Positions 2,453-62,880 are shown, counted from the stretch's first letter. The stretch is DNA of 64,000 nucleotides from Dictyostelium discoideum (GCA_000004695.1 CM000151.3:288001-352000), one strand, 5' to 3'. The notes: generated from the letters alone by a model not told the origin. Program-made: numbers and translations.

Positions 2453-3224
2453 AAAATAAAAAATAAAAAATAAAAAAAAAAACAAAAAAAAATATTTCTA
2501 ATATTAATACATGTATGCATAGAGTTTTTATTCTAACATTCAATTTTTGTTTTTGGCGAAGTGTTAAATTAAAATACTTATAGGCTATCTCTTTGATGAA
2601 AGGAATTGTTATCCTTCTCTTGCCAAGTTTGTTTTAATTATAATACTATTGGAATGTGAAGATAGTGATAAATTATTATATGGTAGCAGTGATTTTGGAA
2701 TATGGAGATGATGGTGATAATAAAGATTTTTGGTTGAAAAAGATGGTGAAACTTTGTGAAGTTGTTGATAGATCTTTTAAACCTAAACTTTGCATATTGG
2801 AATAGCTGATGTTATTGAACAAAATACATTACCTCTAAAACCAAATAATTATGTTTGAACCACCAAATAAACTAGTTCCAAAGCTTGAAATTGTAAATAA
2901 TAGACCACCAATTGGTTGAGTTGAATCACATAGAAATCCACCATAGTAGTTGTTGATTGATGAGCCATGAGTAAATTGGTAGATGCCAATTCGAAGATGC
3001 TCCACTAGGTGATTATTGTATTGAAGCGAACAATTCCCAAGTGATACATATCAAGCAGTTAATACATCATCAGATTCACCATTCTCTTCAGACAATTCAA
3101 TTGTTAAATCATGTTTCAGGAACATTAGATTATCAAAACTTAGGTTTATCAACATTCTATGAAATTGGTACCATTGTTTGGATTGATTCAAATAACAATG
3201 ATAAATTCGAACAACCACGTGATT

Positions 3225-3884
3225 GTCCCATGCCAAAATTATCATATTAATTTCAGCAGCCATATTAATTTTGGCATGGGACTTATGTCTGCCAAAATTA
3301 CCGTATTAATTTCAGCATGTACATAGCAGCCAAAATTAATAAGGTAATTTTGGCATAGAAAAAAAAAAAAGTCAAAGTCATTTAATTAATAATCATCTCA
3401 AATATAAACAAAATTTTAGTACTAAAATTATTATTATTATTTTTATTATAATAATTATAATAAAAAAAAAAAAAAAAAAATTTCATATTATTTTATTTAT
3501 ATCTTTTATTTATTTTTATCTTTTTATTTTTATTATTAATTTTATAATTTATTTTCATTTCTTTTTTTTAGTTGATGTATATTTTTTTATTATTCATTTA
3601 TGTCTACGTTCTAATAAAAAAAATATACACAAAAAAAAAAAAAATTAAAAATAAAAAAAAAAATAAATTGAAGGCACTCATATACTGTCTTCCCAAATAA
3701 CATGTTTTTCAATGTTTTTATACAAATCAGAATTATTTTAAAATAAATTTATGGGATTCTTTTTTTTGTTAATCAAGCAAAATAACGCAGGTATCTCAAT
3801 CAGTCACTTTTCTAAATATTAATTTTTTATTATTAAATCATTATATAATTAAATTAATTAAAATAATTAAAAAAAAAATAAAAA

Positions 3885-3920
<36 letters not shown>

Positions 3921-4420
3921 GAATGAAATGGAATAAAATAAATTAAAAAAAAGAAATACAGAAATTAAAGAAACTTATTTCGAAATTGTTTAAACAATCA
4001 TACAGTTTAAAATTAAATAAATTGTTTTAAACCACCACTTTTTTTGAACACATGAAAATAAATAAGAAATAAAAATAAAAAGATAAAAAAAGATTTGTTT
4101 TTATTTTTTTTTATTTTATAATTATTCTTGTCGTCAGTATTGTTACTATTAATTAATCCCATGAGTTTTTTATTATTATTATTTTTAATTCTTTTATATT
4201 TGAGATGATTATTATTAATTAAATGACTTTGAGTTTTTTTTTTTATTTTTCTATGCCCAAAATTACCATATTAATTTCAGCCTAAAATAGGTGGTCTGTG
4301 CATGCCAAAATTAATATGGCTGCTGAAATTAATATGGTAATTCTAGCAGACATAAGTCCCATGCCAAAATTATCATATTAATTTCAGCAGCCATATTAAT
4401 TTTGGCATGGGACACGTGAT
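3225..4420. mobile_element. MITE-like non-autonomous element (P element family) with complex palindromic termini
   Basis: The same 58-bp palindrome GTCCCATGCCAAAATTATCATATTAATTTCAGCAGCCATATTAATTTTGGCATGGGAC sits at both ends (3225-3282 and 4366-4420). Subterminal modules (CTCAAATATAAA..AATGACTTTGA..CTATGCC) are in inverted orientation at 3340-3420 versus 4190-4265. The interior is AT-rich and non-coding. Related ends occur at 11760-11885, 19690-20155, 45890-46030, 60020-60500 and 61930-62215. Confidence 0.6.
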
Positions 4421-6764: not shown

Positions 6765-8618
6765 ATGTCAACAAATAAAAAAATAAAAACAGATAATAAT
6801 AATAAAATATTTCAAGATATTATTGATTTTGAAATTTTAAAATCTATAATCGATTATTTATTAACCAGCAAAAAAAATAAAAATAATAATAATATTAATA
6901 ATAATCAATATATAATTAAAAAATTTTATTTATATAGAGATGAAATATTAAATTATATATTAGTTTCAAAAAAGTGGTATAATTTTATATCATTTACAAT
7001 ATCAAATAATATTATTAATAATAAACTATTTGAACATTGGTTAAAAACTAATTTTAGTAATAATTCATTTATTGAAAATTATAATAATCAAAATCAATAT
7101 GATAAAAATAATTTAATTTATAATAACATAGAAGATAAACAATATAAAATTAGTTTTAATAAAGAATTTTCAATTATAAAAATCAAAGAATCAATAATCA
7201 ATGATTATTTTAAATTCAATTTATTTTTAGATCATTTTACGATTGACGATGATTTTAAAGAAATTAAAAATAAATTTGAAAAAAATCAATTACTTTATCA
7301 TAGAATTGTAGTTAGTGTTGATACTGATAATTATGGGTTTCCTAGTGATATTTTATTTACAATACATGAATATGTATCAAATGAAAATTCAGAAATCATA
7401 TCAAATTTATTTAAAATATTAGAATTAAATTTTGATTTTTGGTTGGATTACGGATATTGTCCACGTTCTGAAGAGGAGGATGATGAAGGTAATAAAAAAT
7501 GTAGAGAAATATATTTAAATAATTTATCAATTGCTGGTTATAATAGAGAAGTAGGTGAAGATGAAGAAACATTAAAGATATTCAAAATTTTCAAAAGTAA
7601 AAATATAATTTATGATGGATCCAATATTGATGAAAGTGATACTCCAACACATATCGATTATTCAACATTATTCGATCCAGATAATTCAGGTCAACAAGTT
7701 GAATCAATTAAAGTAAAAAATGAATATGGTAATGAAGCACGTCATTTAATCAAACTTAATCAATTTAAAAATTTACATTCAATTACAATACCAATTAATT
7801 CATTTCAAATATTATCAAACTTATCTGAAGAAATGGGATTTTGTAAGTTATATCGTACGATATATTCAGGTGATTCAGATAATATGAAATCAGAATTAAA
7901 TCAAATGATTAATTCATTCATTACAAATAAATCTTTAAAGTATTTAAATATATCATCTGTAAATTCAATATACACTCTTCCAATTAAAAATTATGATGGA
8001 GGTTATCATGAAATTTTTTTTAATAAAATAAATAAAACTATAGAATCATATTCAAATTCATTTAAACCATTATTTTCAGAATTAAATACATCGATTGAAA
8101 GAATTGAATTTGATTGTATGGGTTTATTAAATAATAAATCAATTAAATATTTATATTTATATGATAGTGATTTCATTGTTTATTCATCAAAACAAAAAGG
8201 TAATGTTAGTGGTATTCGATTACATAAAGAACATATTTCAATTAATCAATATTTATTTGATAATATATTTTCATCACCATTAACATCAATTAGACATTAT
8301 AAAATTAAATTCATAGAATTAAATCAAATCAAATTCTTATTTAATTTAATATTAAATAATATTTTTAAATTACAATTATATTCATTAATATTTGAATTCA
8401 ATGATAGCGAATTAATTGGTGAATTTGTTAAAGAATTTAAAAACTTAATAAATAATATTTCAACACAAGAACAACAAAAATCAAATAACATAAATTTAAA
8501 AGAAATTAAGATTAAAATTCAAGATGTTAATATTGATAAATATATTCAAGAATTAAATAATATTAACAATCCATATTTTACAACAATAATAAAGAAAAAA
8601 GCTAATAATGATGATTAA
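6765..8618 (+). CDS. Paralog-array family member 2 (617 aa, intact)
   Basis: Same architecture and motifs as 473..2452. The conserved leader ...CTCTTTATAATTTAAACAAATAATAATG is present upstream. Confidence 0.75.
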   Translation: MSTNKKIKTDNNNKIFQDIIDFEILKSIIDYLLTSKKNKNNNNINNNQYIIKKFYLYRDEILNYILVSKKWYNFISFTISNNIINNKLFEHWLKTNFSNNSFIENYNNQNQYDKNNLIYNNIEDKQYKISFNKEFSIIKIKESIINDYFKFNLFLDHFTIDDDFKEIKNKFEKNQLLYHRIVVSVDTDNYGFPSDILFTIHEYVSNENSEIISNLFKILELNFDFWLDYGYCPRSEEEDDEGNKKCREIYLNNLSIAGYNREVGEDEETLKIFKIFKSKNIIYDGSNIDESDTPTHIDYSTLFDPDNSGQQVESIKVKNEYGNEARHLIKLNQFKNLHSITIPINSFQILSNLSEEMGFCKLYRTIYSGDSDNMKSELNQMINSFITNKSLKYLNISSVNSIYTLPIKNYDGGYHEIFFNKINKTIESYSNSFKPLFSELNTSIERIEFDCMGLLNNKSIKYLYLYDSDFIVYSSKQKGNVSGIRLHKEHISINQYLFDNIFSSPLTSIRHYKIKFIELNQIKFLFNLILNNIFKLQLYSLIFEFNDSELIGEFVKEFKNLINNISTQEQQKSNNINLKEIKIKIQDVNIDKYIQELNNINNPYFTTIIKKKANNDD

Positions 8619-9223
8619 AAAAAATTATCTATATCTAAATTATTCATTTTTCATCCAACTATTTATTTTTTTTTTATTTTTTTTTTTTCAAGTTTTATTT
8701 GGATAAAATTAAATAAAATATTTTTTTTATTTATTTTTTTTTTTTTAGTTTCAAACTGTCACACCTGAATAAAAAAAATAAATGAAAAAACCCTCCCTCT
8801 TTATAATTTTTACAAATAATAATAATATCAACAAATTAAACAGACAATTATAATTTACAAAAAAAAAAAAAAAAAAAAAAAAAAATGGAAAAAAGAAAAC
8901 ATTTTTTTTTTTTAATTATTTCTAATTATTTTTAGAATTTAAACACTTTTATACACCTTATTATATTTTAAAATTTAAATTATTTAAAATGAGTGAATTA
9001 GGGGCAAAAAACGAAAAAAAAAAAAGAATTTCTTGCATAAAAAATATCTTTCTCAAATTTTTTTTTTTTTTTTTTATTTTATTTCATTTTTATTTTTATT
9101 TTATTTTTTATTTTATTTCATTTTATTTTTTTTTCCCAAAAAAAACCTTGTTTGAACCAAACAAATACTGTAACACACAAAAAAAAAAAATTGTAAACAT
9201 CTTTAATGGGTGCGACCATAAAT

Positions 9224-9272
<49 letters not shown>

Positions 9273-9662
9273 TTTGGGACAGTATTTGTTCGTTTCACAA
9301 AAAAAACAATTGAAAAAATCTTTCATGGCACTAAAAAAAGATTTTTAAAAAAAAAAAAAATGGATAAAATTTTAAAAAAACGATATCCATTTTGAATAAT
9401 TTAAAAAAAAAATAGGATGTATAAAGATAATCAAAAAAGAAACTTTTTATCCAAAAATGGATAAAGGTAAAATACTAAAAATTAAAATATATATATTAAA
9501 AAAAAAAATTAAATATATTTTTTTTATATATTTATTTTTTTTTTTTTTTTTTTTTTTTCTAAAAATTTAACAAAATAAACATTTTTTCAAAAAAAAAAAA
9601 AAAAAAAAAAAAAAAATTACCTCATTATTCTCGCGCACTCTTTATAATTTAAAAAAATAATA

Positions 9663-11516: not shown

Positions 11517-11759
11517 AATTTAGGTGGTGTAATAGTTGAACGTGATGACATCGTGTAAAGGGGATCGTTGGCATAATAACCTACTAAATTTGGTGAACAC
11601 AGGATCATAGGTTTACTATAAACAAACATATAAAGAAATAAAAGATAAAAATAAAATGATATAAGATTTTTTTTTTTTTTTTTTTTTTTATTATTATTAT
11701 TATTGTAATAAAAAAAAAATAATAATTTTAGTACTAAAATTTTTTTAGTAATTTTAGTA

Positions 11760-11885
11760 ACAGTTAATTAATCCCATGAGTTTCTATTTGTTTATATTTG
11801 AGATGATTATTAATTAAATGACTTTGACTTTTTTCTTTTTTCTATGCCAAAATTACCATATTAATTTCAGCATATACATAGCTGC
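11760..11885 (+). repeat. Solo end fragment of the palindromic-end MITE family
   Basis: TTAATTAATCCCATGAGTTT..ATTTGAGATGATTATTAATTAAATGACTTTGA..CTATGCCAAAATTACCATATTAATTTCAGC matches the 4110-4290 terminus. No partner end nearby. Confidence 0.5.
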
Positions 11886-11936: not shown

Positions 11937-12050
11937 CTATTTCTTTATTACTGTTGTGAAATATGGAATATTAATATTATTTATTTCTTGAATATATTCA
12001 TTATCATTAGTTTCAATTTTAATTTCTTTTAAAGTAATGTTATTTGATTT

Positions 12051-12126
<76 letters not shown>

Positions 12127-13916
12127 ATTGAAATATTATTTATTAAATTTTTAAATTCTTTAACAAAATCACAAACTAATTCGTTTTTATTGAATTCAAA
12201 TATTAATGAATATAATTGTAATTTAAAAATATTATTTAATATTAAATTAAATATGAATTTTAATTGATTTAATTCATTCAATTTAATTTTATAATGTCTA
12301 ATTGATGTTAATGGTGATGAAAATATATTATCAAATAAATATTGATTAATTGAAATAGGTTCTTGATGTAATTCATTACCGCTATAACTTGGTTTTGAAG
12401 AGTAAACAATGAAATCACTACCATATAAATATAAATATTTAATTGATTTATTATTTAATAAATTTGAAAATGTATTGATATTTAATAAACCACAACAATC
12501 AAATTCAATTCTTTCAATTGATGTATTTAATTCTGAAAATAATGGTTTAAATGAATTTGAAAATGATTCTATAGTTTCGTTTATTTTATTAGCAAAAATT
12601 TCATGATCAGCTCCCTTACAATCACGATAATATAAACCTTCATAATCAATTGGAGAATATTTTGAACTTACTGATGAGATATTTAAATTCTTTAAAGATT
12701 TACTTGTAATAAATGAATTGATCATTTGATTTAATTCTGTATTAATATTTTCAGAGTTACCCGATTCTGATTTACTATTATAAAATCTAATAAATCCCAT
12801 ATCCTCAGATAAGTTTGATAATATTTGAAAAGAGCTAATTGGTATTGTAATTGAATGTAAATTTTCAAATTGATTAACTTTGGCTAAATGGAGAGGTTCA
12901 ACAAATTCATCATTATCAGGTTCAATTTGTACTTTAATTGATTCAACTTGTTGACCTGAATTATCTGGATCAAATAATGCTGAATAATTGACATGTGTAG
13001 GCATATCACTACAAGTATCAGATCCATCATAAAATATATTTCTACCTTTGAAAATTTTGAATATCTTTACTGTTTCTTCATCATTACCTACTTCTCCATC
13101 AAAACCTGCAATTGATAAATTATTTAAATATAATTCAGTACATTTCTTACCACCTTTATCAGTATCATGATCACCTTCCTCCTCTTCAGAGTTTGGGCTA
13201 TAACCATTATCCAAACAAAAATCAATATTTAATTCTAATATTTTAAATAATTTTGATATGACTTCTGAATTTTCATTTGATACATATTCATGTATTCTAA
13301 ATAAAGTTGTTTTATTATTATTACTATCATAATCAGCATCAACATTAACTACAATTCTATTATAAAGTAATTGATTATTTTCAAATTTATTTTTAATTTC
13401 TTTAAAATCATCAATTGTAATCTTATATAAAAATAAATTGATTTTAAAATAATCATTGATTATTGATTCTTTGATTTTTATAATTGAAAACTCTTTATTA
13501 AAACTAATTTTATTTTGTTGATAATTATAATCTTCATCTTTAAAAATTAAATTATTTTTATCATATTGATTTTGATTATTATAATTTTCAATAAATGATT
13601 TATTTTTATTATTATAATTAATTTTTAACCAATGTTCAAATAATTTATTATCAATAATATTATTTGATATTGTTAATGATATAAAATTATACCACTTTTT
13701 TGAAACTAATATATAATTTAATATTTCATTTCTATAAAAATAAAATTTATTAATTTTATATATATTAATAGTATTATTATTTAAATTATTATTTTTATTT
13801 TTATTTTTTTTGCTAGTTAATAAATAGTTGATTATAGATTTTAAAATTTCAAAATCAATAATATCTTGAAATATTTTATTGTTATTATTTGTTTTTATTT
13901 TTTTACTTGTTGACAT
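11937..13916 (-). CDS. Paralog-array family member 4 (659 aa, intact), the only inverted copy; carries a (CAA)n-encoded polyQ tract of about 26 Q
   Basis: Intact ORF on the minus strand with the family motifs. A (TTG)n/(CAA)n microsatellite at 12050-12125 encodes QQQ...Q just before the C-terminal SNNITLKEIKI motif. Confidence 0.75.
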
Positions 13917-14227
13917 TATTATTTGTTAACATGATATGTTAAGAGTGAGTTTGAATTTTTAAAGTGTTTGAAAAAAAAAAAAGTAAAAAAAAAAAGAAAA
14001 AAAAAAAAAAAGTTGTGATTAGAGATGCTGGAAATGAAAAAAAAATAAAAAAAAAAAAAAAAAAAAATTTGGCAAAAAAAAAAAAAAATTGTTTTTTTTT
14101 ATTTTTTTTATTTTTTTTAAAAACAAGTTTAAACGATCCATCTTCTAATGGTAAAATGATGGGATCATTTAATTTTAATCTCTGAGTGCCGAAGAATTCC
14201 AATGGAGTATGAAGATGTTCAGTTGGT

Positions 14228-14708
14228 TCTATAGTTTTGTTTATAAATAAAAAAAGAGAGAATTTAATTAATTAATTAAAAATAATAATAATAATAATAA
14301 TAGTTTACCTTGGTAAGCTTTACTCAAATCATGTAGTTTTTGTTTCTTTAGTGGTGACTTTCTTTTGAGGCTAGAGTTGGATTTTGAATCTTCATCTGAC
14401 TCCGATTCTGATGGATCTGAATATTCTTCCTCATTGTCATTTGGGTTTGGTAATTGTGGTTGTGGTGGTGTTATTGTTGGTATTGTCTGTGCAGTAGATG
14501 CAGAAGGGACTTGAACGGTGATTGTGTGACTTTTTAAATCTGATGAAATTTTCTTTATCCTTTGGGTTAACGCAGTTTTGGTTCTTTTTTGTTGGAAATT
14601 AATATTTAAATTATTGAGAATATCGTCGGCAACCAAAGAAGGTTTTTTTAATAATTCGCTTTTAATATAATTATCTTCAGCTGGAGACCAATTTGAAGTT
14701 TTGGGCAT
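14228..14708 (-). CDS. Myb/SANT-like DNA-binding protein. Exon 1 is 14309..14708, then a GT..AG intron 14229..14308; exon 2 starts at 14228 and its 3' end is uncertain. Likely the accessory gene of a Harbinger/PIF-like transposon
   Basis: N-terminal WSPAEDNYIKSELLKK...KRTKTALTQRIKKI fits the W-x-EED Myb/SANT pattern, followed by an acidic Ser-rich tail. The splice donor CAAG|GTAAAC and acceptor CTATAG| join in frame to ...EPTEHLHTPLEFFGTQRLKLNDPIILPLEDGSFKL. It lies next to, and diverges from, a DDE_Tnp_4 fragment. Confidence 0.5.
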
Positions 14709-14731
14709 TCTTTAAATATAAAAATAAAATT

Positions 14732-14771
<40 letters not shown>

Positions 14772-14945
14772 AAAAAAAAAAGAAGTTTTGTCAAAATACT
14801 CTCCATTAGTTTTTTCAAAAAAAAAAAAATGCACATTTTTTTTAAAAAAAATTACAGTAACAATAAATTACTATAAGCTGCTCGTAATATTTTACGAGGG
14901 CAGCACCAAAAAAAAAGTCCAGTAACTTTTACACTAAAAAAAAAA

Positions 14946-15115
14946 GATTGATGGTATTAAAATTTATTCAGTCATAGACACCACATTATTTAATATTCAA
15001 AAACCAACTGATTTTCAAGATGTTTATTATTCACCAAAACACAAAAAACATGGCATCAAATTGGAAGTTGTATGCAACGTTTCAGATGGAAAAATCATTT
15101 GGGTATCAAATGGTG

Positions 15116-15183
<68 letters not shown>

Positions 15184-15319
15184 AAGAAACTAATTTTTTT
15201 TTTTAATTTTAGAATTTTATGGTGGGTCTGAACACGATATTACTATTTCAAGACATTCAGGTTTGGTTGATGGTGAATTTAATTTAGAGGAAGATGAAAA
15301 AATTTTGGCTTTCTATTAA
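14946..15319 (+). pseudogene. Harbinger/PIF-type DDE transposase (DDE_Tnp_4) fragment, N- and C-terminally incomplete
   Basis: IDGIKIYSVIDTT...YYSPKHKKHGIKLEVVCNVSDGKIIWVSN(E)FYGGSEHDITISRHS matches the Harbinger core (aIDGThi..YynrKg.ysiNvq.vcD..g.i..v..GwpGS.HD..vl..S). A 104-nt intron (15108..15211) made mostly of a 68-nt poly(A) separates ...VSN from EFYGGSEHD. No upstream catalytic N-terminus, and it stops about 30 aa after the HD motif. Confidence 0.6.
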
Positions 15320-15444
15320 TTAATAGAAACACTTTATCGATTATAAATAAAAATATTAAAATAACTAAAGATAAAAATGAAAATTTATAAAAAAAATTTA
15401 AATAATCATAAATAAAAGATAAAAATAAAAAGATATAAAAAAGA

Positions 15445-15475
<31 letters not shown>

Positions 15476-15583
15476 ATTCTTGTCATCAGTATTGTTACTA
15501 TAATTAATCCATGAGTTTTTTAATTATTGAATTTATATTTGAGAGATTATTATTTAAATGACTAAGAATTTTTTATTTTTTTT

Positions 15584-16540
15584 TTACTTACTATCATTAT
15601 AATCAGTAGCAGTATAGTTTATTGGGTCATCTAGCATTGATTTTAATCTATTATTATCTAATTTTCCTTCAAAATTTTCAATTTCTTGAATTGTTGTCGG
15701 AACTGATTCTAAAGATACTTTTAATAATATTATTGAAGTTGAAACTTGTTCTTTTTCTTTTTCTTTTTCTGATTCAGTTAATATCTTTAATTTTATTATT
15801 AATTTACAAGTGGTAATTAATCTTTTTAATGTTGATCTTTCATTAACCTGATATATAGTTTTGAGGTTTTTAATTATTAGATCAATTGTTAATTTACTAT
15901 TATTACAACTACTACTATTATTATTATTATTATTATCATTACCAATGTTATTTAAATAACATAATAATCCTTTAAAAATATTATCATTTTTTGGAATTTC
16001 ATCTAACTCGATTGATTTCTCACCAAAATCAGTGTTATTTAATGATGTTTCTAATGATGTTGATGATGGTGAGTTTGATTTTTTTAATTCTAAATTCTTT
16101 GATTGTATTATTGCAGTTGATACATAAATTGGTGAAGAGTAATAATACCTTTGAATTTTGAAAAAGTTTCTATTAAATTTGAAATCATTTTTAATTATTT
16201 CAAATAATTTCTTTAAATAAATTAAAATTAAATCTTTACGCCAACTAGATTGATCAGACTCTTTACGCCAACAAGTTTCACCAAATTCTAAATATCTACA
16301 ATTTCTATAAGCTTTTTCTTTTAAAATACTAATTTGATTTGAATCTATTAGTTTAGTTATTGACGATACTGAATCGTAACTAAATGAATATTGGTTATAC
16401 ATAAATGAGAATATCTTTTTATAAATTGCTTTATTTCTAAACAATTTCCAAAATAATATTTCAATTGGTTCTATATTATCTGTAATTGTTAATTTTATTG
16501 AATGAATTAGTATTTTCTTTTCGTTCATGTTCTTCTTCAT
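15584..16540 (-). CDS. ORF1-family protein (318 aa), intact short copy; transposon-associated, function unknown
   Basis: Intact ORF MKKNMNEKKILIHSIKLTITDNIEPIEILFWKLFRNKAIYKKIFSFM.... An identical N-terminal 150 aa occurs in the longer degenerate copy at 55222..57782. Family fragments at 58300-58400 and 63450-64000. Bounded downstream by a truncated palindromic-MITE terminus (15470-15580). Confidence 0.6.
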   Translation of the reverse strand: MKKNMNEKKILIHSIKLTITDNIEPIEILFWKLFRNKAIYKKIFSFMYNQYSFSYDSVSSITKLIDSNQISILKEKAYRNCRYLEFGETCWRKESDQSSWRKDLILIYLKKLFEIIKNDFKFNRNFFKIQRYYYSSPIYVSTAIIQSKNLELKKSNSPSSTSLETSLNNTDFGEKSIELDEIPKNDNIFKGLLCYLNNIGNDNNNNNNSSSCNNSKLTIDLIIKNLKTIYQVNERSTLKRLITTCKLIIKLKILTESEKEKEKEQVSTSIILLKVSLESVPTTIQEIENFEGKLDNNRLKSMLDDPINYTATDYNDSK

Positions 16541-19420: not shown

Positions 19421-19620
19421 TTTTTGGAACGAAAACTTTAAAAAAATAAAAAAATAAAAAAAAAAATACTTTTTTTTTTTAATTTTTTTTTTTATATTTT
19501 TTTTTTTATATTTTTTTTTTTTAAATTTTTTTTTTTAATTTTTTTTTTTTATTTTATTTTTTTAAAGTTTCGAACAATTATATATAAAAAAAAAGTAAAA
19601 GATATCCCTTCGGTTAATTA

Positions 19621-19689
<69 letters not shown>

Positions 19690-19698
<9 letters not shown>

Positions 19699-20155
19699 TT
19701 CGAAATGTTTAAACAATCATACAGTTTAAAATTAAATAAATTGTTTTAAACCACCACTTTTTTTGAACACATGAAAATAAATAAGATATAAAAATAATAA
19801 GATAAAAAAAGATTTTTTTTTTTTTTTTTTTTTATTTTATAATTATTCTTGTCGTCAGTATTGTTACTATAATTAATCCCATGAGTTTTTTTTATTATTA
19901 TTTTTAATTCTTTTATATTTGAGATGATTATTATTAATTAAATGACTTTGAGTTTTTTTTTTTATTTTTCTATGCCCAAAATTACCATATTAATTTCAGC
20001 AGCCATATTAATTTCAGCCTAAAATAGTTGGTCTGTGCATGCCAAAATTAATATGGCTGCTGAAATTAATATGGTAATTCTAGCAGACATAAGTCCCATG
20101 CCAAAATTACCATATTAATTTCAGCAGCCATATTAATTTTGGCATGGGACACACA
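19690..20155 (+). repeat. Terminus of the palindromic-end MITE family, capping the 15.4-20.2 kb duplicated block
   Basis: Matches the 3955-4420 subterminal and terminal sequence, including the double palindrome ...CCATATTAATTTCAGCAGCCATATTAATTTCAGC...GTCCCATGCCAAAATTACCATATTAATTTCAGCAGCCATATTAATTTTGGCATGGGAC. Preceded by (AAT)n at 19621-19690. Confidence 0.55.
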
Positions 20156-21069
20156 CTACTACTATGATTCAACCAAATCAATATTCAACATTTAAATTAG
20201 AATTAATAGTATTAAAACAAGAATTTTCATTAATGTTCATTAAATTTAGAACGTAGTTTGAAATCATAGAATCATGACCCAACCACTGACTAGTAGTTTA
20301 AATCCATTCTCAAGTAATCATTCCAAATTATCACCACCAGCACCAAATGCAACATCAACTACAACATCAAATCAGCAGCATCTCAATCGAAACAATTGCA
20401 GCTCATGAATCAATTCTTACTCTTCAAATCTAGCCAGTAAATGGTATCTCTGAAAATGAGACAAAATCTCAACAAGCCACCCCAGAGAATTAGATTAGAG
20501 CTCTGAAGTTGATTGATGCAACCCATTGTTATCACAGGTGGTAAATCTGTAACAATATTTTCAACCATATGGTTAATATGAATAAATTTTATTATCTATA
20601 ATTAAAGGTTGTTGATTTAATCTATCGTTATTATTAATTTTATCTATTGATAAATCTAGTAGTATATCTCTTATCTCGTCTAATCTTTTTTTTGCAGTTT
20701 TTTGTGAAATTTTAAAAATAAATGATAAATTATCCATAGTAGGATAATTTTTTATAAAATAAAAAAATAATAATTTGAAATTTTTATTTTATTTTATTTT
20801 TCTTCGTTTATTGATCCATATATTTTAATAAAGGAAATTTTATCTACCCAAAATAAGGAGCGAAATTCCCTTTAATATATTCTCTAAGGAATTATATGTT
20901 TCCATTCTTTAATAATAATTCATTAAAATTAAAAAAAAAAAAAAAATTTAAAAAAAATAAAAAAAAAAAAAGACTTTTAAAATTGAATATGAAAATGGTG
21001 ATAATTATGCCATTATTGAATTTGTACTCTATGATAAATTTAATGGTCAAGAAATTTTAAACAAATGGG

Positions 21070-21489: not shown

Positions 21490-23472
21490 ATGTCAACAAA
21501 AAAAAAAATTAAAACAGATAATAATAATAAAATATTTCAAGATTTTATTGATTTTGAAATTTTAAGATCTTTAATCAATTATTTATTAATCAACAAAACA
21601 AATAATAATAATAATAATAATAATAAATATAAAATTAGTAAATTTTATTTACATAGAAATGAAATATTGAATTATATATTAGTTTCAAAAAAGTGGTATA
21701 ATTTTATATCATTAACAATATCAAATAATATTATTAATAATAAATCATTTGAACATTGGTTAAAAATTAATAATAATAATAATAATAAATCATTTACTAA
21801 AAATTATAATAATCAAAATCGATATGATAAAAATAATTTAATTTTTAATAACAAATATAGTAAAAATAAAATTGGTTTTAATAAAGAATTTTCAATTATA
21901 AAAATCAAAGAATCAATAATCAAAGATTATTTTAAATTCAATTTATTTTTAAGTAATATTACAATTGATGATTTTAAAGAAATTAAAAATAAATTTGAAA
22001 ATAATCAATTAGTTTATAATAGAATTGTTGTTGATATTAAAACTGGCTATTATGGTGAAGGGAATCAAGATGAAATTTTATTTAAAATACATGAATATGT
22101 ATCAAATGAAAATTCAGAAATCATATCAAATTTATTTAAAATATTAGAATTAAATCATGATTTTATGATAATCGATGACTTTCATCCAAAATCTAAAGAA
22201 GAGGATGAAGAGGATGAGGAGGATGATGAAAATGATAAAGGTAGTAAGAAATGTACTGAAATATATTTAAATAATTTATTGGTTTCCGGTTATGATCTAA
22301 CTATGGATGAGGATGAAGATAGAGAATCATTAAAGATATTCAAAATATTTAAAAGTAAAAATATATTTTATGATGGGTCTGGTATTGCTAGTGATATTCC
22401 AACACATGTCAATTATTCAGCATTGTTTGATCCTGATAATTCAGGTCAACAAGTTGAATCGATTAAAGTAAAAAATGAACTTGAAGATCCTGATTTTGTA
22501 GAACCACTCCATTTAATCAAAGTTAATCAATTTAAAAATTTACATTCAATTACAATACCAATTAATTCATTTCAAATATTATCAAACTTATCCGAAGAAA
22601 TGGGATATTTTAGTATCGATTGTTTTAAATCTGGTTTTGGTCTTTCAGATAATATGAAATCAGAATTAAATCAAATGATCAATTCATTCATTACAAGTAA
22701 ATCTTTAAAAAATTTAAAAATAACATCTATTAGTACAAAAGAAGATCCAATTGATTATGATGCTTATTATGATGAAGGTGATCTTCAAACTTTTATGAAT
22801 CAAATAAATGAACCTAAAGAATCATTTTCAAATTGTTTCAAACCATTATTTTCAGAATTAAATACATCAATTGAAAGAATTGAATTTGATTGTTGCGGTT
22901 TATTAAATATCAATACATTTTCAAATTTATTAAATAATAAATCAATTAAATATTTATATTTATATGATAGTGATTTCTTTTTTTCTTCATTAAAAACAAG
23001 TGATGGTGGTAGTGATGATTGTGGTATTGATGATGATGGTGGTAGTGATGATTGTGGTATTGATGATGATGGTGGTAGTGATGATTGTGATGCATATCAA
23101 AAAATTATTTCCATTAATCAATATCTATTTGAAAATATATTTTCATCACCATTAACATCAATTAGACATTACAGAATTAAATTCAAAGAATTAGATGAAT
23201 TAAAATTCATATTTAATTTAATATTAAATAATATTTTTAAATTACAATTATATTCATTAATATTTGAATTCAATGAAAACGAATTAGTTTATGAATTTGT
23301 TAAAGAATTTAAAAATTTAATAAATAATATTTCAATACAAGAACAACAACAACAACAACAAAAATCAAACAACATAAATTTAAAAGAAATTAAAATTATA
23401 ATAAATGATGACTGTTTAGAAGAATTAAATAATCCATATTTCAAAACAACAATAAAGAATAGCCCATATTAA
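21490..23472 (+). CDS. Paralog-array family member 5 (660 aa, intact); contains an internal 3x (DDCGIDDDGGSD) tandem expansion
   Basis: Intact ORF with the family motifs. A 39-nt unit is repeated three times at 22990-23100 inside the variable region that precedes the conserved ISINQYLF motif. Confidence 0.75.
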   Translation: MSTKKKIKTDNNNKIFQDFIDFEILRSLINYLLINKTNNNNNNNNKYKISKFYLHRNEILNYILVSKKWYNFISLTISNNIINNKSFEHWLKINNNNNNKSFTKNYNNQNRYDKNNLIFNNKYSKNKIGFNKEFSIIKIKESIIKDYFKFNLFLSNITIDDFKEIKNKFENNQLVYNRIVVDIKTGYYGEGNQDEILFKIHEYVSNENSEIISNLFKILELNHDFMIIDDFHPKSKEEDEEDEEDDENDKGSKKCTEIYLNNLLVSGYDLTMDEDEDRESLKIFKIFKSKNIFYDGSGIASDIPTHVNYSALFDPDNSGQQVESIKVKNELEDPDFVEPLHLIKVNQFKNLHSITIPINSFQILSNLSEEMGYFSIDCFKSGFGLSDNMKSELNQMINSFITSKSLKNLKITSISTKEDPIDYDAYYDEGDLQTFMNQINEPKESFSNCFKPLFSELNTSIERIEFDCCGLLNINTFSNLLNNKSIKYLYLYDSDFFFSSLKTSDGGSDDCGIDDDGGSDDCGIDDDGGSDDCDAYQKIISINQYLFENIFSSPLTSIRHYRIKFKELDELKFIFNLILNNIFKLQLYSLIFEFNENELVYEFVKEFKNLINNISIQEQQQQQQKSNNINLKEIKIIINDDCLEELNNPYFKTTIKNSPY

Positions 23473-43080: not shown

Positions 43081-45148
43081 TAAATAAATGATGGGTTACA
43101 AAAAATTTTCAGTGTGAGATTTGAAAAAAAAAAATTAAAAAAAAAAAAATAAAAAAAATAAAAAAAAAATAAAAAAAATAAAAAAAAAAGGATATATAAA
43201 AATCAAATCTAACCATTTGTTAGATTTGATTTTTATATATCCTAAAAAGGATTTAGTAGATAAATTGTAAAAACATTCAAGATGGACAACCAAAAAAAAA
43301 AAAAAAAAAATTTTCTTTTAACGGGCGAATATATTTTATAAAAAATAATGTTTATATTGATGAACATTCAAATTAGACCCAAAAAAAAAAAAAAAAAAAA
43401 AAAAAAAATCGATAACAATTTAAATTTATTAATTTTTAATATGAATTTAGTATAGATAAATAAAGCACCCAAAAATACACAAAATGATATAAAATATATC
43501 AAAAACGAATTTAATTATTATTATTATTTTTAATTTTTTTTTTTTTTTTTTTTTTTTGGGTTCAATCGAGAAAAAAAAAATTAACTTGGCTGAAATAATT
43601 GTTTTATTTTTATTTTTTAATAATGAATTTAATCTTGATCAGTGTAAATATTTTTATTTTTTTAATTTTTTTATTTTTTTTTTTTTTTTTTTATTTTTTT
43701 TTTTTTTATTTTTTTTTGTTATCCCAGATTTTAATTTTTTATTTTTTATTCATCCCTTTTTTATTATATTTTAGTTATTTTATTTAACAACAAACACTGT
43801 TCTTTTTCTTTTATTTCTTTTAGTTTATCTTGGTCGAATTCAATGCCAAAACCATCATTATATGTTTCTTGAAGATCACCTAACATACAGAGTATTAAGA
43901 CGATTTTGTTTAAATGATCCAAATTTCCTCGGTATGTTGAAATTATTTTAAAATGATTAATTTTTTAAAAAAAAGTTTTCCACATACACACGGTTGGAGC
44001 TTACAAAATTAGGTAAAGATATATCTAGAAAAAAAAATAATAAAATAATAAAAAATAAAAAATACCAATAATATAATTATTTTAATAATAATAAAAAAAA
44101 AAAAAAATAAAAAAAATAAAAAAAATAATAATAAAATAAAATTAATAACAAAGTATTATAAGAAAGAGATTTGGTTATTTAAAATAATTACCCAATATTG
44201 GAAAGCTATCATGTTTACGAATAATTTGACCATTATTATAGTATTGTGGCTCTCTATTTTGGTCTTTTATAGTATATATTTGATCATGATCAGGAACCTG
44301 GGAATCCCTCAGGATGTAGTAAAATAATCTGTATGATCTAGTGCATACCTTACAATGAAATTTGACCACATGACTTTGCTTTTACCAGAATAGTATTTTT
44401 TTTTGGATTTGGTAATCAGTGGGAGTTTAAATATCAATAGGAGCAAGGAGCACAATTGGCAGAAGGATTTGATTTTCTTGGTGTTGGCATTTGTTTTCTT
44501 TTTTTTGGAATATGCATTTGCCGAGTATCAAGTATCATATTTTATTACCCACAAGAGAGCAAATAAGCGTTTTATTTGGGTCTGATGTGGCCAATAAATG
44601 GTCAATCAAAAATAATTGTTTACCTTTAAAAACAACATTGTTTCCTTTTTTACACTGTTCAGCAATTGCAAGTGAAAAAGCTAATATAAAACCCAATATA
44701 GATGCTTTTGGAAATATTGATGTGTTGATCCAACCAAAGGAAATAAAAAAAGTTGATGAAGAAGAATGGATCGAGAATTAATTAATTGGAAAAAAAAAAT
44801 CAAAAAAAATCAAATCAAATCAAATCAAATCAAATCAAATCAAATAAAATCCAATCCAATAAAATAAAATAAAATAAAATAGAATCGAATTAAATTAAAC
44901 AAAATCAAAAAAAAAAAAAAAAAAAAAAAAATTAATTAATTAATTAAATAAATAAATAAAATTGGATAATGCAAATTAATCTTTATTTTGTTTTTAAATT
45001 ATTATTTATTATTATTGTTTTTTATTATTTATTATTTTTTGAAATATTGCGATTTCTCGCAACTCTATTGTTTTTATCAATTTAATAATAATAAAAAAAA
45101 AAAAAAAAAAAAAAAAATTTTCATTTACAATTTTTACAAAAAATAATA

Positions 45149-46140
45149 ATGTCAACAAATAAAAAAGTTAAAACAGATAATAATAATAAAATATTTCAAG
45201 ATTTAATTGATTTTGAAATTTTAAGATATTTAATCGATTATTTATTAATCAGCAAGAAAAATAAAAATAAAAATAAAAATAATAATCAATATGAAATTAA
45301 TAGATTTTATTTTAATAGAAATGAAATATTAAATTATATATTAGTTTCAAAAAAGTGGTATAATTTTATATCATTAACAATATCAAATAATATTATTGAA
45401 AAAAAATCATTTGAACATTTGTTAGAAATTAAAAATAATAATAAAAAATCATTTATTAAAAATTATAATAATCAAAATCAATATGATAAAAATAATTTAA
45501 TTATCAAGGATCTATATTAGTTTTAATAAAGAGTTTTCAATTATAAAAATCAAAGAATCAATAATCGATGATTATTTAAAATTTAATTTATTTTTATATG
45601 GCATTACAGTTAATGATTTTAAAGAAATTAAAAAGAAATATATTTGATAATAATCAATTAGTTTATAATAGAATTGTATTTGATGTTTACTAATGATACA
45701 GATTATGATTATGGTGATTATAGTATTTTATTTAAAATACATAAATATGTATCAAATGAAAATTCAGAAATCATATCAAACTTATTTAAAATATTATAAT
45801 TAAATTTCGATCCTTTTTTAACCACTGGTTATAGCCCAAAATCTGAACATGATGAAAGTTATAAGAAATGTAGTGAAATATATTTTAATAAATTATCAAT
45901 TATGGGTTCTGATAGAGATATTAATATGGTAATTTTAGACTCCTGAAATTGATATGGATGCAAATTAAATTAATATGGCTGCTGAAATTAATATGGCTGC
46001 TTAAATTAAATTAATATGGATGCAAATTAATAAATAAATAAATAAAAAAAAAAAAAAAAAAAAATTTAATTTATAAAAAAATTTAGAATAATATTCATAA
46101 TCCATTTTTCAAAACAATAATAAAGAATAACAAATAATAA
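45149..46140 (+). pseudogene. Family member with frameshifts, a large internal deletion and an inserted palindromic-MITE fragment (45890-46030)
   Basis: ORF 45149..45520 has the family N-terminus, then breaks (..NNLIIKDLY*). The remaining frames carry KESIIDDY, NQLVYNRIV and SNENSEIISNLFKIL. A C-terminal NPFFKTIIKNNK stub lies at 46090-46140. Confidence 0.6.
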
Positions 46141-46484: not shown

Positions 46485-48395
46485 ATGTCAACATATAAAA
46501 TTAAAATAGATAATAAAATATTTCAAGATCTTATTGATTTTGAAATTTTAAGATCAATAATTAATTATTTATTAACCAGCAAAAAAAATAAAAAAAAAAA
46601 TAGTACTAATAATAGCAATACTAGTAATCAATACAAAATTAATAAATTTTATTTTAATAGAAATGAAATATTAAATTATATATTAGTTTCAAAAAAGTGG
46701 TATAATTTTATATCATTAACAATATCAAATAATATTATTAATAATAACTTTTTTGAACATTGGTTAAAAATTAATAATAATAAATCATTTATTGAAAATT
46801 ATAATAATCAAAATCAATATGATAAAAATAATTTAATTTTTAATAACAAAGGTCGTAAACAATATAAAATTAGTTTTAATAAAGAGTTTTCAATTATAAA
46901 AATCAAAGAATCAATAATCAATGATTATTTTAAATTCAATTTATTTTTAAATAATATTACAATTTATGTTTTTAAAGAAATTAAATACAAATTTGAAAAC
47001 AATCAATTACTTTATAATAGAATTGTAGTTAATATGGATACAAATTATGGTGAAGGGAATAAAGATGAAATTTTATTTAAAATACATAAATATGTATCAA
47101 ATGAAAATTCAGAAATCATATTAAATTTATTTAAAATATTAGAATTAAATCATGATTTTATGATAACCCATCTTCCGGGTTCTGAAGAGGTGGAGGATGA
47201 AGGTAATAAGAAATGTACTGAATTTCATTTAAATAATTTATCAATTTGTTGTTTTGATAGATGTGTAGGTGAAGATAGAAAAACATTAAAGATATTCAAA
47301 AATTTCAAAGGTAAAAATATAATTTATGATGGACCCAATGTTACTTATGATATTACAACATATATCGATTATTCAGTATTATTTGACCCAGACACTTCAG
47401 GTCAACAAGTTGAATCTATTAAAGTAAAAAATGAATATGAGGATTGTGCTAATTTTGTTGAAGCACGTCATTTAATCAAAGTTAATCAATTTGAAAATTT
47501 ACATTCAATTAAAATACCATTGAATTCATTTCAAATATTATCAAACTTATCTGAAGAATTGGGGTTTGATGGTTTCGATTGTTTTAAATCAGATTTTGGT
47601 TATTCAGATAATATGAAATCAGAATTAAATCAAATGATAAATTCATTTATTACAAGTAAATCTATAAAGAATTTAAAAATAACATCCATTATTTCAACAG
47701 AAGATTCTCCAATTGAATATCATACTTCTTGTGATGAAAGTAATATTCAAACTTTTATTAATAATATAAATGAAAGTAAAGAATCATTTTCAAATTCATT
47801 TAAACCATTATTTTCAGAATTGAATACATCAATTGAAAGAATTGAATTTGATTGTATGGGTTTATTAAATATCAATACATTTTCAAAATTGCTAAATAAT
47901 AAATCCATTAAATATTTATATTTATATGATAGTGATTTCATTTTTTATTCACTAAAACCAACTGGTGGTGATAGTGATGATGATGATGATGATGATGGTG
48001 ATGGTGGTAGTGCAGTACTTCAAGAAACTATTTCAATTAATCAATATTTATTTGAAAATATATTTTCATCACCATTAACATCAATTAGACATTATAAAAT
48101 TAATTTCAAAGAATCAAAACAATTAAAATTCATATTTAATTTAATATTAAATAATATTTTTAAATTACAATTATATTCATTAATATTTGTATTCAATGAT
48201 AACGAATTAATTGGTGAATTTGTTAAAGAATTTAGAAATTTAATTAATAATATTTCAACACAACAACAACAAAAATCAAATAACATAAATTTGAAAGAAA
48301 TTAAAATTGAAATGTATGATGAAAACTATTTCCAAGAATTAAATAATATTAATAGCCCATATTTCAAAACTGTAATAAAGAATTACCAATATTAA
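46485..48395 (+). CDS. Paralog-array family member (636 aa, intact); variable region is a poly-Asp run (SDDDDDDDGDGGS)
   Basis: Intact ORF with the family motifs (LFDPDTSGQQVESIKV, SPYFKTVIKNYQY). Confidence 0.75.
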   Translation: MSTYKIKIDNKIFQDLIDFEILRSIINYLLTSKKNKKKNSTNNSNTSNQYKINKFYFNRNEILNYILVSKKWYNFISLTISNNIINNNFFEHWLKINNNKSFIENYNNQNQYDKNNLIFNNKGRKQYKISFNKEFSIIKIKESIINDYFKFNLFLNNITIYVFKEIKYKFENNQLLYNRIVVNMDTNYGEGNKDEILFKIHKYVSNENSEIILNLFKILELNHDFMITHLPGSEEVEDEGNKKCTEFHLNNLSICCFDRCVGEDRKTLKIFKNFKGKNIIYDGPNVTYDITTYIDYSVLFDPDTSGQQVESIKVKNEYEDCANFVEARHLIKVNQFENLHSIKIPLNSFQILSNLSEELGFDGFDCFKSDFGYSDNMKSELNQMINSFITSKSIKNLKITSIISTEDSPIEYHTSCDESNIQTFINNINESKESFSNSFKPLFSELNTSIERIEFDCMGLLNINTFSKLLNNKSIKYLYLYDSDFIFYSLKPTGGDSDDDDDDDGDGGSAVLQETISINQYLFENIFSSPLTSIRHYKINFKESKQLKFIFNLILNNIFKLQLYSLIFVFNDNELIGEFVKEFRNLINNISTQQQQKSNNINLKEIKIEMYDENYFQELNNINSPYFKTVIKNYQY

Positions 48396-57782: not shown

Positions 57783-58958
57783 ATTTAATTCAAATGAAAT
57801 CTTTGAACCATACTTTAAAAATAATTTTAAATATCTAACAAATTAATAAAATAATTGATGATGACCATTCTTCATACAAACCAGCATTACCAAAATTATT
57901 GGACATAATTATTTATTTATTTACTTATTTAGATTTGGATGATTTGGATCAACAACAGCATCAAGTTATTTAGTAGTGATAGTGGAACATCAAAAACTAC
58001 TAATACTACACAGCTAACCAAAAGCAATAATAATCAATAATAAAAAAACTCATGGATTAATTATAGTAACAATGTTGATGACAAGAATAATTATAATTTT
58101 AATAAAAAAAAAAAAAAAAAAAAAAATCTTTTATATCTTTTTATTTTTATATTTTATTTATGACTATTAAATATTAATAAATAAAGATAAAAATGGAAAT
58201 ATATAAAAAATTTTTTTAATATTTAATATTTAATCTGAATTTTACAATCTTTTTTTTTTTTTGTTACTCTAATATTCAATTTTTTTTTTTTTTTTTTTTT
58301 TATTAAATTAACAATTACAGATAATATTGAACCTACTGAAATATTATTTTGTTTAGAAATAAGGCAATTTATTAAAAGATATTCTCATTTATGGATATCC
58401 AAATCTCAATAACATATGATTCAATGTCATCAATAACACAACTAATAGATTCAAATCAATATGGTATAATTAACTCTTACAAAAGATCCGAGTAATTTTA
58501 AAAGACCCAGAGTAATTTCCTTAAACTAACAATCAAATTAAGGAAATTAACTTTCAAAGTATTTTGTATTAAAGATTTGCATAGTCTATGTTAACTTCAT
58601 GAAGGATCCTTCTTCATATTTGGTGGGATTATAGGTTTAATTGCGTTATTCGTGGGTCAAGATCCCATGTTTTCCGCGGGCTGTTGTAATGTATATAAAT
58701 TTTTTCAATCTAATGTCTTTTTTTATTGATTAAACAAGTTCTCCCAGTATATGAATAAAAAATAATTAATAGTTTTATAAATGGATTTAAATTTTAAAAA
58801 TTATTCCTTTTTAATACTTGTAAGGTTATTATTATTATTTTATTTTATTTTTTTATTTTTTTTATATTCAAAGGAATTTTAAATTATTAAAATGTTGTAA
58901 TAAATATTATATGAATTAATCGAATGAAAAAAGATTTGCAAGCATCAACTAGTTTTCT

Positions 58959-59021: not shown

Positions 59022-59095
59022 TATTCAGAGCGGGAATCGAACCCACGACCTAATCCGTGTTAAGGATTCGTGATAACCGACTACACCATCCGAAC
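59022..59095 (-). tRNA. tRNA-Val(AAC): tRNA-Val (anticodon AAC)
   Basis: The minus strand reads GTTCGGA TG GTGT AGTCGGTTA TCAC G AATCC TTAACAC GGATT AGGTC GTGGG TTCGATT CCCGC TCTGAAT A. This is a cloverleaf with a canonical T-loop and a 5-bp anticodon stem. The 7-bp acceptor stem has two G-T wobble pairs (1-72 and 5-68), so it may be slightly degenerate. Confidence 0.6.
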
Positions 59096-60019: not shown

Positions 60020-60500
60020 ACTGTCCCATGCCAAAATTAATATGGCTGCTGAAATTAATATGGTAATTTTGGCATGGGACTTATGTCTGCTAGAATTACC
60101 ATATTAATTTCAGCAGCCATATTAATTTTGGCATGGGCCGACCAACTATTTTAGGCTGAAATTAATATGGCTGCCGAAATTAATATGGTAATTTTGGGCA
60201 TAGAAAAATAAAAAAAAAAACTCAAAGTCATTTAATTAATAATAATCATCTCAAATATAAAAGAATTAAAAATAATAATAAAAAAAAACTCATGGGATTA
60301 ATTATAGTAACAATACTGACGACAAGAATAATTATAAAATAAAAAAAAAAAAAAAAATCTTTTTTTATCTTTTTATTTTTATTTCTTATTTATTTTCATG
60401 TGTTCAAAAAAAGTGGTGGTTTAAAACAATTTATTTAATTTTAAACTGTATGATTGTTTAAACAATTTCGAAATAAGTTTCTTTAAAGAAATTCTGTATT
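60020..60500 (-). repeat. Palindromic-MITE terminus (reverse orientation), followed by (ATT)n at 60601-60750
   Basis: Reverse complement of the 3955-4420 terminal block, including the triple CCATATTAATTTCAGC palindromes and CTCAAAGTCATTTAATTAATAAT...CTCATGGGATTAATTATAGTAACAATACTGACGACAAGAATAATTAT. Confidence 0.55.
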
Positions 60501-60596
60501 TCTTTTTTTTATTTTATTTTATTTCATTTCATTCTATTTTTTTTTTTTTATTTTTTTTATTTTTTTATTTTTTTATTTTTTTTTTGTATATTTAAG

Positions 60597-61697: not shown

Positions 61698-61929
61698 AAA
61701 AAAAAAATTAAAAAAAAAAAATTATTTTAATTTTTTTTTTTTTTTTTATTTTATTTTTTTTTTTTATTTTTAATTTTTTTTTTTGTTAGCCTTGGAAATA
61801 AATGAATAATAAAAAAATATATATCAACTAAAAAAAAAAGAAATGAAAATAAATTATAAAATTAATAATAAAAATAAAAAGATAAAAATAAATAAAAGAT
61901 AAAATAAAATAATATGAAAATTTTTTTTT

Positions 61930-62215
61930 TTTTTTTTTTATTATTATAATTATTATAATAAAAATAATAATAATATTAATTTTAGTACTAAAATTTTGTT
62001 TATATTTGAGATGATTATTAATTAAATGACTTTGACTTTTTTTTTTTCTATGCCAAAATTACCATATTAATTTTGGCAGCTATGTACATGCTGAAATTAA
62101 TATGGCTGCTGAAATTAATAAGGTAATTTTGGCAGACCTAAGTCCCATGCCAAAATTAATATGGCTGCTGAAATTAATATGGTAATTTTGGCATGGGACA
62201 ATTAACTATTAAAGA
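61930..62215 (+). repeat. Palindromic-MITE terminus
   Basis: ATTTGAGATGATTATTAATTAAATGACTTTGA..CTATGCCAAAATTACCATATTAATTTTGGCAGC...GTCCCATGCCAAAATTAATATGGCTGCTGAAATTAATATGGTAATTTTGGCATGGGAC. Confidence 0.5.
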
Positions 62216-62880
62216 ATTAAAATATTTTTTATTTTCATCACTTCAAAGGGATAAAGTTAAAATTTCTAAATTCCTTTTTCAATTTATTTCTATTTCCGAA
62301 ATTTGAAGCACATAAAAAATCACATAAAAATAATAAATATAATTAATAATAAAAAAAAAAAATAAAAAAAAAAAATAAAAAAAAAAAATATTGAAAATTA
62401 AAAATTTTGGTTGGGAATTAAAAAAATAAAAAATGCAGCAAAAAGCATTATTAAAATTAAATCAAACAAAAATAAATTAAATTATATTAAATTAAATCAA
62501 ATAAAATTTTTATTTTTTTTTTTATTTTTATTTTTTTTCGTTTTTATTTTTATTTTTTTTTTTTTTACTTTTATTTTTTTATTTTCATTGCCCTGCAAAT
62601 AAATCCTCACTCTTTCTTCGAATTTTATTTTAATTTGACCGTTTTATTAGCGAGAGAATTAAAAAAAAAAAAAAAAAAATTAAAAAAAATAAATAGAATT
62701 GACCTTGTAACGCGATATATACTATTATAATTATTGTAGTAGAAGTTGGTGCTACTGTATAACTACCTAAACTTTCATTTTTACAATTATTATCATTACC
62801 AAAATATCTGAATTTGATTTTAGAAAATTTAACCTCTACAAATACTACTTCCATCAATTGAATTTAAGCCTGATAAACTT

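Follow-up and report, generated by a model that had tools for sequence, protein, structure and literature searches.

A half-relic of a two-gene Harbinger/PIF-type transposon in the genome of Dictyostelium discoideum

Positions 14021–15309 of the 64,000-nucleotide stretch of Dictyostelium discoideum DNA analysed here, referred to as the window, very probably represent the immobile, non-coding half-relic of a ~2.5-kb Harbinger/PIF cut-and-paste transposon specific to the D. discoideum group. The relic comprises two gene remnants in divergent orientation, a transposase piece on the plus strand and a truncated partner gene on the minus strand, together with a single transposon terminus at the partner-gene end. 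The window has a G+C content of ~20% and is 99.4% identical to assembly GCA_054883475.1 over 3.5 kb. The features that an earlier note had described in this DNA are present at or near where it placed them, and their peptides were reproduced by translation.

Splicing of plus-strand positions 14944–15112 to 15213–15316 yields a 91-residue peptide composed of KIDGIKIYSVIDTTLFNIQKPTDFQDVYYSPKHKKHGIKLEVVCNVSDGKIIWVSN and EFYGGSEHDITISRHSGLVDGEFNLEEDEKILAFY, followed by a stop codon. It matches the Pfam family DDE_Tnp_4 (PF13359) over profile positions 1–79 of 158, with an E-value of 2.7e-13 and a score of 50.3 bits (Pfam cut-off of 24.8 bits), a match far above chance that bears out the earlier identification of a truncated Harbinger/PIF-type transposase. 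The piece corresponds to approximately residues 109–195 of a 283-residue full-length relative (locus L009), and is devoid of the N-terminal half and the C-terminal end, as had been proposed. A word-indexed search with the 91-residue fragment found no relatives; these were reached through a four-sequence profile.

The exon 1 remnant of the transposase (14947–15112, plus strand; 165/168 nucleotides identical to L009 9230–9063) carries the first catalytic aspartate within VIDTT and the YYSPKHKKHGIKLEV motif. It is followed by a 100-nucleotide intron (15113–15212), which has a homologue at the same position in loci L005 and L009; the poly(A)-rich character noted earlier for this intron is real, but the A run measures 66 nucleotides (15116–15181) rather than 68. 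The exon 2 remnant (15213–15309, plus strand) contributes the second catalytic aspartate within GGSEHD. At 15309, shortly ahead of the ADKGY motif, homology to the transposase breaks off, and the stop codon of the piece, at 15317–15319, lies outside the element. The catalytic triad is consequently incomplete: VIDTT and GGSEHD are kept, the peptide ends at EKILA followed by FY and the stop, and both ADKGY and the glutamate of the ...IENVF... segment, which are present in L005, L009 and protein P0019, are missing. An incomplete Asp/Asp/Glu triad means that this copy is dead, not that it falls outside the PIF/Harbinger superfamily. In AX4 the plus-strand remnant, on the 8.48-Mb chromosome, is annotated as DDB_G0271198 (45 residues), an entry best read as an annotation artefact of a dead transposon fragment.

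Located on the minus strand is the partner gene. Exon 1 (14309–14708) encodes residues 1–133, all identical to residues 1–133 of DDB_G0269532, the full-length partner protein of AX4 (279 residues). An 80-nucleotide phase 1 intron with GT...AG boundaries (14229–14308) separates it from an exon 2 remnant (14120–14228; residues 134–170, EPTEHLHTPLEFFGTQRLKLNDPIILPLEDGSFKLVF). The frame is open across the exon junction and the splice is consistent with the gene models of paralogues P0001 and P0009, in agreement with the earlier description of an open reading frame (ORF) running through its spliced junction. Identity to DDB_G0269532 is 100% where the two are aligned (residues 1–165), and the frame runs on to residue 170, past which there is no further match. 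There it enters poly-T, and the ORF terminates in ~60 residues of poly-T/poly-A read-through, with a stop at ~13939. The ORF therefore holds residues 1–170 of 279 and is truncated; the gene described earlier as intact-looking has lost its last 109 residues, comprising the conserved C-terminal domain, to a 360-bp deletion.

In a second D. discoideum strain the partner gene is called as a gene (P0001) and is 99.4% identical in DNA sequence. The window ORF is apparently absent from the AX4 protein set, in which the cluster members of the partner family are only DDB_G0269532 and DDB_G0271528. Eight relatives of the partner protein came up in a word-indexed search, and they belong to D. discoideum, D. 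cf. discoideum or D. dimigraforme alone. When 1.84 billion representatives were searched exhaustively with a profile, six Dictyostelium-type proteins were the only return and one further full-length member was gained; nothing homologous was found outside the D. discoideum group.

The divergent pair of transposase and partner genes is found again at no fewer than five other Dictyostelium loci (L002, L003, L005, L008 and L009), whose flanking genes are unrelated. Loci L002 and L003 are internally deleted copies of the two-gene element, L005 has a transposase split by a 3.2-kb integrase-bearing insertion, and L008 is a copy from a second subfamily. Locus L009, from D. cf. discoideum, carries an apparently intact 283-residue transposase gene with one intron (8636–9554), the product of which combines a helix-turn-helix region at its N terminus with the whole DDE_Tnp_4 domain (E-value of 4.4e-25, profile positions 1–158 of 158). 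Its core DNA is 97–98% identical to the transposase piece in the window.

The termini were identified by reading through the ends of aligned elements, the automatic inverted-repeat search having been swamped by poly(A) and poly(T). The terminal sequence AGAGATGSTGKRAWTTGAAAA forms inverted repeats at the two ends of L002 (7589 and 9185) and L004 (3635 and ~9044), and at one end only of L006, L009 and the window copy (14021). The 3-bp flanks are equal in both complete derivatives, AAT/AAT in L002 and ATT/ATT in L004. With two cases in AT-rich DNA, the putative target duplication has the length known for Harbinger elements (typically 2–3 bp, PMC3627910) and the sequence AWT, not TWA. In the intact relatives the AGAGATGSTGKRAWTTGAAAA repeats enclose head-to-head transposase (283 residues) and partner (279 residues) genes with one intron each, and the full element is estimated at ~2.5 kb between its AGAGATG... 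inverted repeats. The recurrence of the pair at five loci, the inverted repeats and the matching 3-bp flanks uphold the earlier proposal of a single transposon that includes both divergent genes. Of the features anticipated there, terminal repeats were likewise found, and so were putative target duplications in L002 and L004, while the window copy has a single end.

That end is the terminal inverted repeat at 14021–14041 (plus strand; AGAGATGCTGGAAATGAAAAA), with an outer flank of ATT (14018–14020); the same sequence ends L002, L004, L006 and L009, and it is the sole match to the terminus consensus in the 64-kb window. Next to it is an A/T-rich subterminal and 3′-untranslated remnant of the partner gene (14042–14119, minus strand), 98–100% identical to L006 8966–9067. 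At 14119–14120 a global alignment with L006, a copy from a sister strain, places the junction of the 360-bp deletion (L006 8606–8965), on either side of which 100/100 and 31/31 bases are identical. This deletion removed partner codons 171–279 with their stop codon, and some of the 3′ untranslated region.

What is left of the divergent intergenic (promoter) region shared by the two genes (14709–14946) aligns to L009 9977–9762 and to L004. It ends at the junction of a 531-bp deletion (14946–14947, relative to L009 9231–9761) that shows ATTG microhomology. With it went part of the intergenic region, amounting to half of the region upstream of the partner gene, as well as transposase codons 1 to ~108 and with them the helix-turn-helix region. 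A deletion common to the window and L004 was considered and rejected, as alignment to L009 shows L004 to extend into intergenic sequence that has not been deleted; only the window locus thus bears the 531-bp loss. Also absent from the window copy are the catalytic glutamate region, the transposase-side subterminal sequence and the second terminus, leaving ~1.29 of ~2.5 kb. With one terminus, the 531-bp and 360-bp losses, and a transposase cut before ADKGY and the glutamate, this copy cannot transpose. A fragment of an abundant local repeat lies at 15408–15585, 100 bp past the transposase break, and may mark the truncating event.

The partner protein is predicted by AlphaFold to consist of three regions. 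At the N terminus is a putative three-helix bundle (helices 9–21, 27–38 and 44–60; pLDDT of 77 when modelled alone), which in exon 1 is followed by an acidic, serine-rich linker with a KRK...KKQK basic patch. The linker is predicted to be disordered over residues 60–150, and residues 150–275 of full-length copies are modelled as a β-rich domain (pLDDT 73–87), which in the model is a β-sandwich of the small-heat-shock/CS-like type.

Compared with solved folds, the N-terminal bundle gives TM-scores of 0.5–0.63, none of them significant (best E-value of 0.59). The nearest folds include the Pax paired subdomains, the SANT domain of DMAP1, CDC5L, c-Myb, Trichomonas vaginalis Myb3 and homeodomains. 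The predicted bundle with its helix-turn-helix would thus be a generic homeodomain-like fold, compatible with Myb, SANT, homeodomain or paired domains. The 61-residue N terminus matches no Pfam family at E ≤ 10, P0009 and P0012 match none at E ≤ 1 (Myb_DNA-binding, Myb_DNA-bind_3/4 and MADF included), and a profile search of the PDB with the partner protein gave no match. Myb/SANT repeats are recognized by tryptophans or other aromatic residues spaced ~19–21 residues apart. The only tryptophan present is W7, which is replaced by leucine in P0007, and the positions ~20 and ~40 residues beyond it are aliphatic (L26/V27 and L47/I51). The earlier assignment to a Myb/SANT-like family is thus not sustained, given one tryptophan and no match in Pfam, in the PDB or outside the group; judged from the model, ‘Myb-like’ would describe a fold-level possibility and not a demonstrated family membership. 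The sequence of the partner shows no detectable kinship with the Myb/SANT/trihelix proteins that known Harbinger elements encode, and its putative role is read from its position and fold.

If it behaves like its counterparts in characterised Harbinger elements, the partner protein may bind subterminal DNA through its three-helix domain, and its C-terminal domain, with the putative β-sandwich acting as a protein–protein interaction module, may recruit or import the transposase. The basic patch KRKSPLKKQK is a candidate nuclear localisation signal. The transposase would then excise the element at its inverted repeats and reinsert it, and insertion would duplicate 3 bp of an AWT target. Abortive gap repair and slippage typically erode DNA transposons, and the microhomology at the deletion junctions would fit either process.

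Two-gene transposons of the PIF/Harbinger superfamily include zebrafish Harbinger3_DR, maize PIF and rice Pong, and their usual target is TWA. Like them, the Dictyostelium family pairs a transposase that has a DDE_Tnp_4 domain and an N-terminal helix-turn-helix with a second gene, whose small product has a predicted N-terminal three-helix domain of DNA-binding type; it also has short inverted repeats at its termini, a putative 3-bp duplication of the target and frequent internally deleted derivatives. It differs from them in its partner protein, which has one tryptophan and matches no Myb/SANT/trihelix model, in a putative target of AWT rather than TWA, and in the small size of its transposase (283 residues).

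A second, distantly related DDE_Tnp_4 family in Dictyostelium (AX4 DDB_G0282883, equal to P0017; L005 9256–12012) belongs to the same superfamily and has the same head-to-head two-gene layout. In its partner protein (298 residues, no Pfam match), likewise, a low-complexity linker joins a small domain at the N terminus to another at the C terminus. The transposases of the two families are, however, only 25–34% identical, and no similarity is detectable between their partner proteins (hhalign probability 0.3). DDB_G0282883 has altered motifs (GSELD and ADEDF) and looks inactive; P0015, a copy of this family in another D. discoideum strain, retains ADKGY. In L009, two identical 434-residue DDE_Tnp_4 genes (6888–8192 and 12149–13453, both minus strand; E-value of 1.3e-11) flank or interrupt an element of the family described here, and represent a third Harbinger-type family, apparently recently active in D. 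cf. discoideum. ORFs with an integrase-type zinc finger (H..GH.G..KTY.KF...C..C.R) lie inside or between Harbinger-like genes in L005 (4459–7111) and L008 (1570–4983), and probably belong to Tdd-type elements, as transposons nested in transposons.

The DNA transposons of D. discoideum have been catalogued as Tdd, DDT and thug, with transposases said to be unlike any known (PMC5633606), and no description of Harbinger/PIF in Dictyostelium or Amoebozoa was found in the accessible literature. The earlier statement that the described dictyostelid families include no Harbinger elements fits that catalogue (PMC5633606), but UniProt labels AX4 DDB_G0282883 as DDE Tnp4 domain-containing. The present family is specific to the D. 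discoideum group and seems undescribed for the organism, judging by the published catalogue. It resembles Tdd-4/5, DDT-A/B/S and thug-S/T in host genome, low copy number, mutual nesting and insertion into other repeats.

One alternative, improbable but the most serious of those considered, is that the window holds a copy of an already catalogued thug-T or DDT element whose transposase was never recognised as Harbinger-type. The published remark that the Tdd, DDT and thug enzymes resemble no known ones (PMC5633606) would allow it, and thug-S hairpin repeats lie near both transposase remnants in the window. These thug-S-type repeats, which carry mir-7131 hairpins, have no AGAGATG terminus, however, and only a single such terminus exists in 64 kb; they also abut the Harbinger-like pieces at differing points and in differing orientations. 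Tdd elements, for their part, encode integrase-like enzymes (PMC2836005), and such ORFs occur here as insertions into the element. Hardly credible is the reading in which chance or a local segmental duplication brought the two ORFs together, without their forming one mobile unit. The window is indeed rich in local gene duplicates, and its partner remnants at 14.1 and 44.5 kb both adjoin genes of the MSTxKK family, but the head-to-head pair stands among unrelated flanks at five loci and in two subfamilies, bracketed by inverted repeats with equal 3-bp flanks.

A further alternative, suggested by the earlier note, is that the partner gene has survived or been domesticated, its truncated product being kept by the host as a DNA-binding protein, for instance as a repressor on transposon ends; truncated transposon products act as end-occupying repressors in other systems. 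The vertebrate genes HARBI1 and NAIF1, domesticated descendants of a Harbinger transposase and of its Myb-like partner, offer a model for a partner protein that outlives its transposon, although the window gene differs from them in being truncated, attached to a terminus, multi-copy and confined to one species group. We consider such retention very unlikely. In its favour are 170 authentic open codons with a correct splice, the gene call and high identity in the second strain, and an N terminus that models as a three-helix bundle of DNA-binding type. Against it, the frame breaks off at residue 170 of 279, only 100 bp from the transposon terminus that still adjoins the gene, and ends in read-through of poly-T/poly-A; half of the upstream intergenic region is gone, and the ORF is apparently missing from the AX4 protein set. 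The same locus was found only in the second D. discoideum strain (L001). Its 100% identity to an intact paralogue indicates that the copy is young, and the intactness of what is left is then a matter of youth and not of selection; in so young a copy some leftover activity of the truncated product is nevertheless conceivable. For the partner C-terminal exon, dN/dS is ~0.1 between subfamilies, where dS is near saturation, and 0.7–1.5, near 1, between recently diverged copies. Such values are usual where an active transposon lineage depends on a gene while single copies decay neutrally, and would not indicate host capture. The window copy is a deletion derivative still bearing a transposon terminus, and domestication is unsupported for it; the half-relic of a group-specific Harbinger/PIF transposon remains the preferred reading.

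Other remnants of the superfamily occur in the window. At 20576–20871 (minus strand) is the N-terminal helix-turn-helix part of a second-subfamily transposase, 94% identical to residues 1–54 of P0019 from D. citrinum. This remnant matches HTH_Tnp_4 with an E-value of 7.7e-5, below the Pfam cut-off, is frameshifted and ends in ...PLIIDNKIYSY and a stop, after which a cluster of mir-7131 hairpins follows. That this piece and the 14.9-kb core are parts of one split gene was considered and rejected, since they overlap by ~10 codons and belong to different subfamilies (94% versus 55–66% identity to P0019). A C-terminal remnant of a second-subfamily partner gene lies at 44491–44781 (plus strand; aligned over 44509–44778), with 78% identity to P0012 residues 195–288 and 42% to P0009. 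A pseudogene of the MSTxKK family begins shortly downstream of it, an arrangement that repeats the one at 14.1 kb.

This neighbouring family, of proteins ~650 residues long that begin with the pattern MST.KK.K.DNNNKIFQD.IDFEIL..., has at least four paralogues in the window (11937–13916, minus strand; 21490–23472, 45149–45520 and 46485–48395, plus strand) and further copies in L001. It has no significant Pfam domain and looks like a locally amplified, lineage-specific gene family.

Perfect hairpin repeats are clustered at 3223–3282, 4301–4415, 19976–20152, 45967–46010, 60022–60197 and 62087–62226, and TATGGCTGCTGAAATTAAT is present in 13 copies in the window against 0.01 expected. Three hairpin loci reach the Rfam gathering score for mir-7131 (94–99 bits), and the hairpin has a folding energy of −91.5 kcal/mol (z −14). 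The motif resembles miRNA_can_D3 (PMC4894637), assumed here to be the same RNA as ‘miRNA-like_D3’, which sits in the intron of the thug-S transposon (PMC4894637). A repeat of ~200–570 bp flanks the hairpins, at 3231–3519, 3973–4415, 11626–11872, 15408–15585, 19580–20152, 58020–58161, 60022–60591 and 61882–62200. Beside the cluster at 58–62 kb is a tRNA gene (59022–59095, minus strand; Rfam, 57.9 bits); tRNA genes are landing sites for Dictyostelium retroelements. No mir-7131 or miRNA_can_D3 hairpin lies within 14021–15309, those of the window being at ~3.2, 4.3, 20.0, 46.0, 60.1 and 62.1 kb. The thug-S hairpins come after pieces of transposase both in L005 and at 20 kb, and were considered as a part of the element, such as an intron; this was rejected, as junction points and orientations differ and termini are unshared.

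The window copy itself is an ordinary, genuine transposon relic. Beyond it, we tentatively propose a wider picture that is possible, if on balance doubtful: that the D. discoideum group harbours undescribed Harbinger/PIF lineages in which the obligatory partner would be a lineage-specific fusion of a minimal three-helix DNA-binding domain with an sHSP/CS (p23-like) β-sandwich, in place of a Myb/SANT/trihelix protein, and that the intact DDB_G0269532 may have outlived every copy of its own transposase in D. discoideum proper, which would suggest cross-mobilisation by another Harbinger family or a first step of host capture. A clear Harbinger/PIF element would add a recognised superfamily to D. 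discoideum, whose catalogued transposases reportedly resemble none known. The ends of the family are defined, a putative target duplication accompanies them, a sister lineage preserves an apparently intact transposase, and several copies are deletion derivatives; its defined protein pair and ends make a testable transposition system. The unusual architecture predicted for the partner would widen the range of Harbinger accessory proteins.
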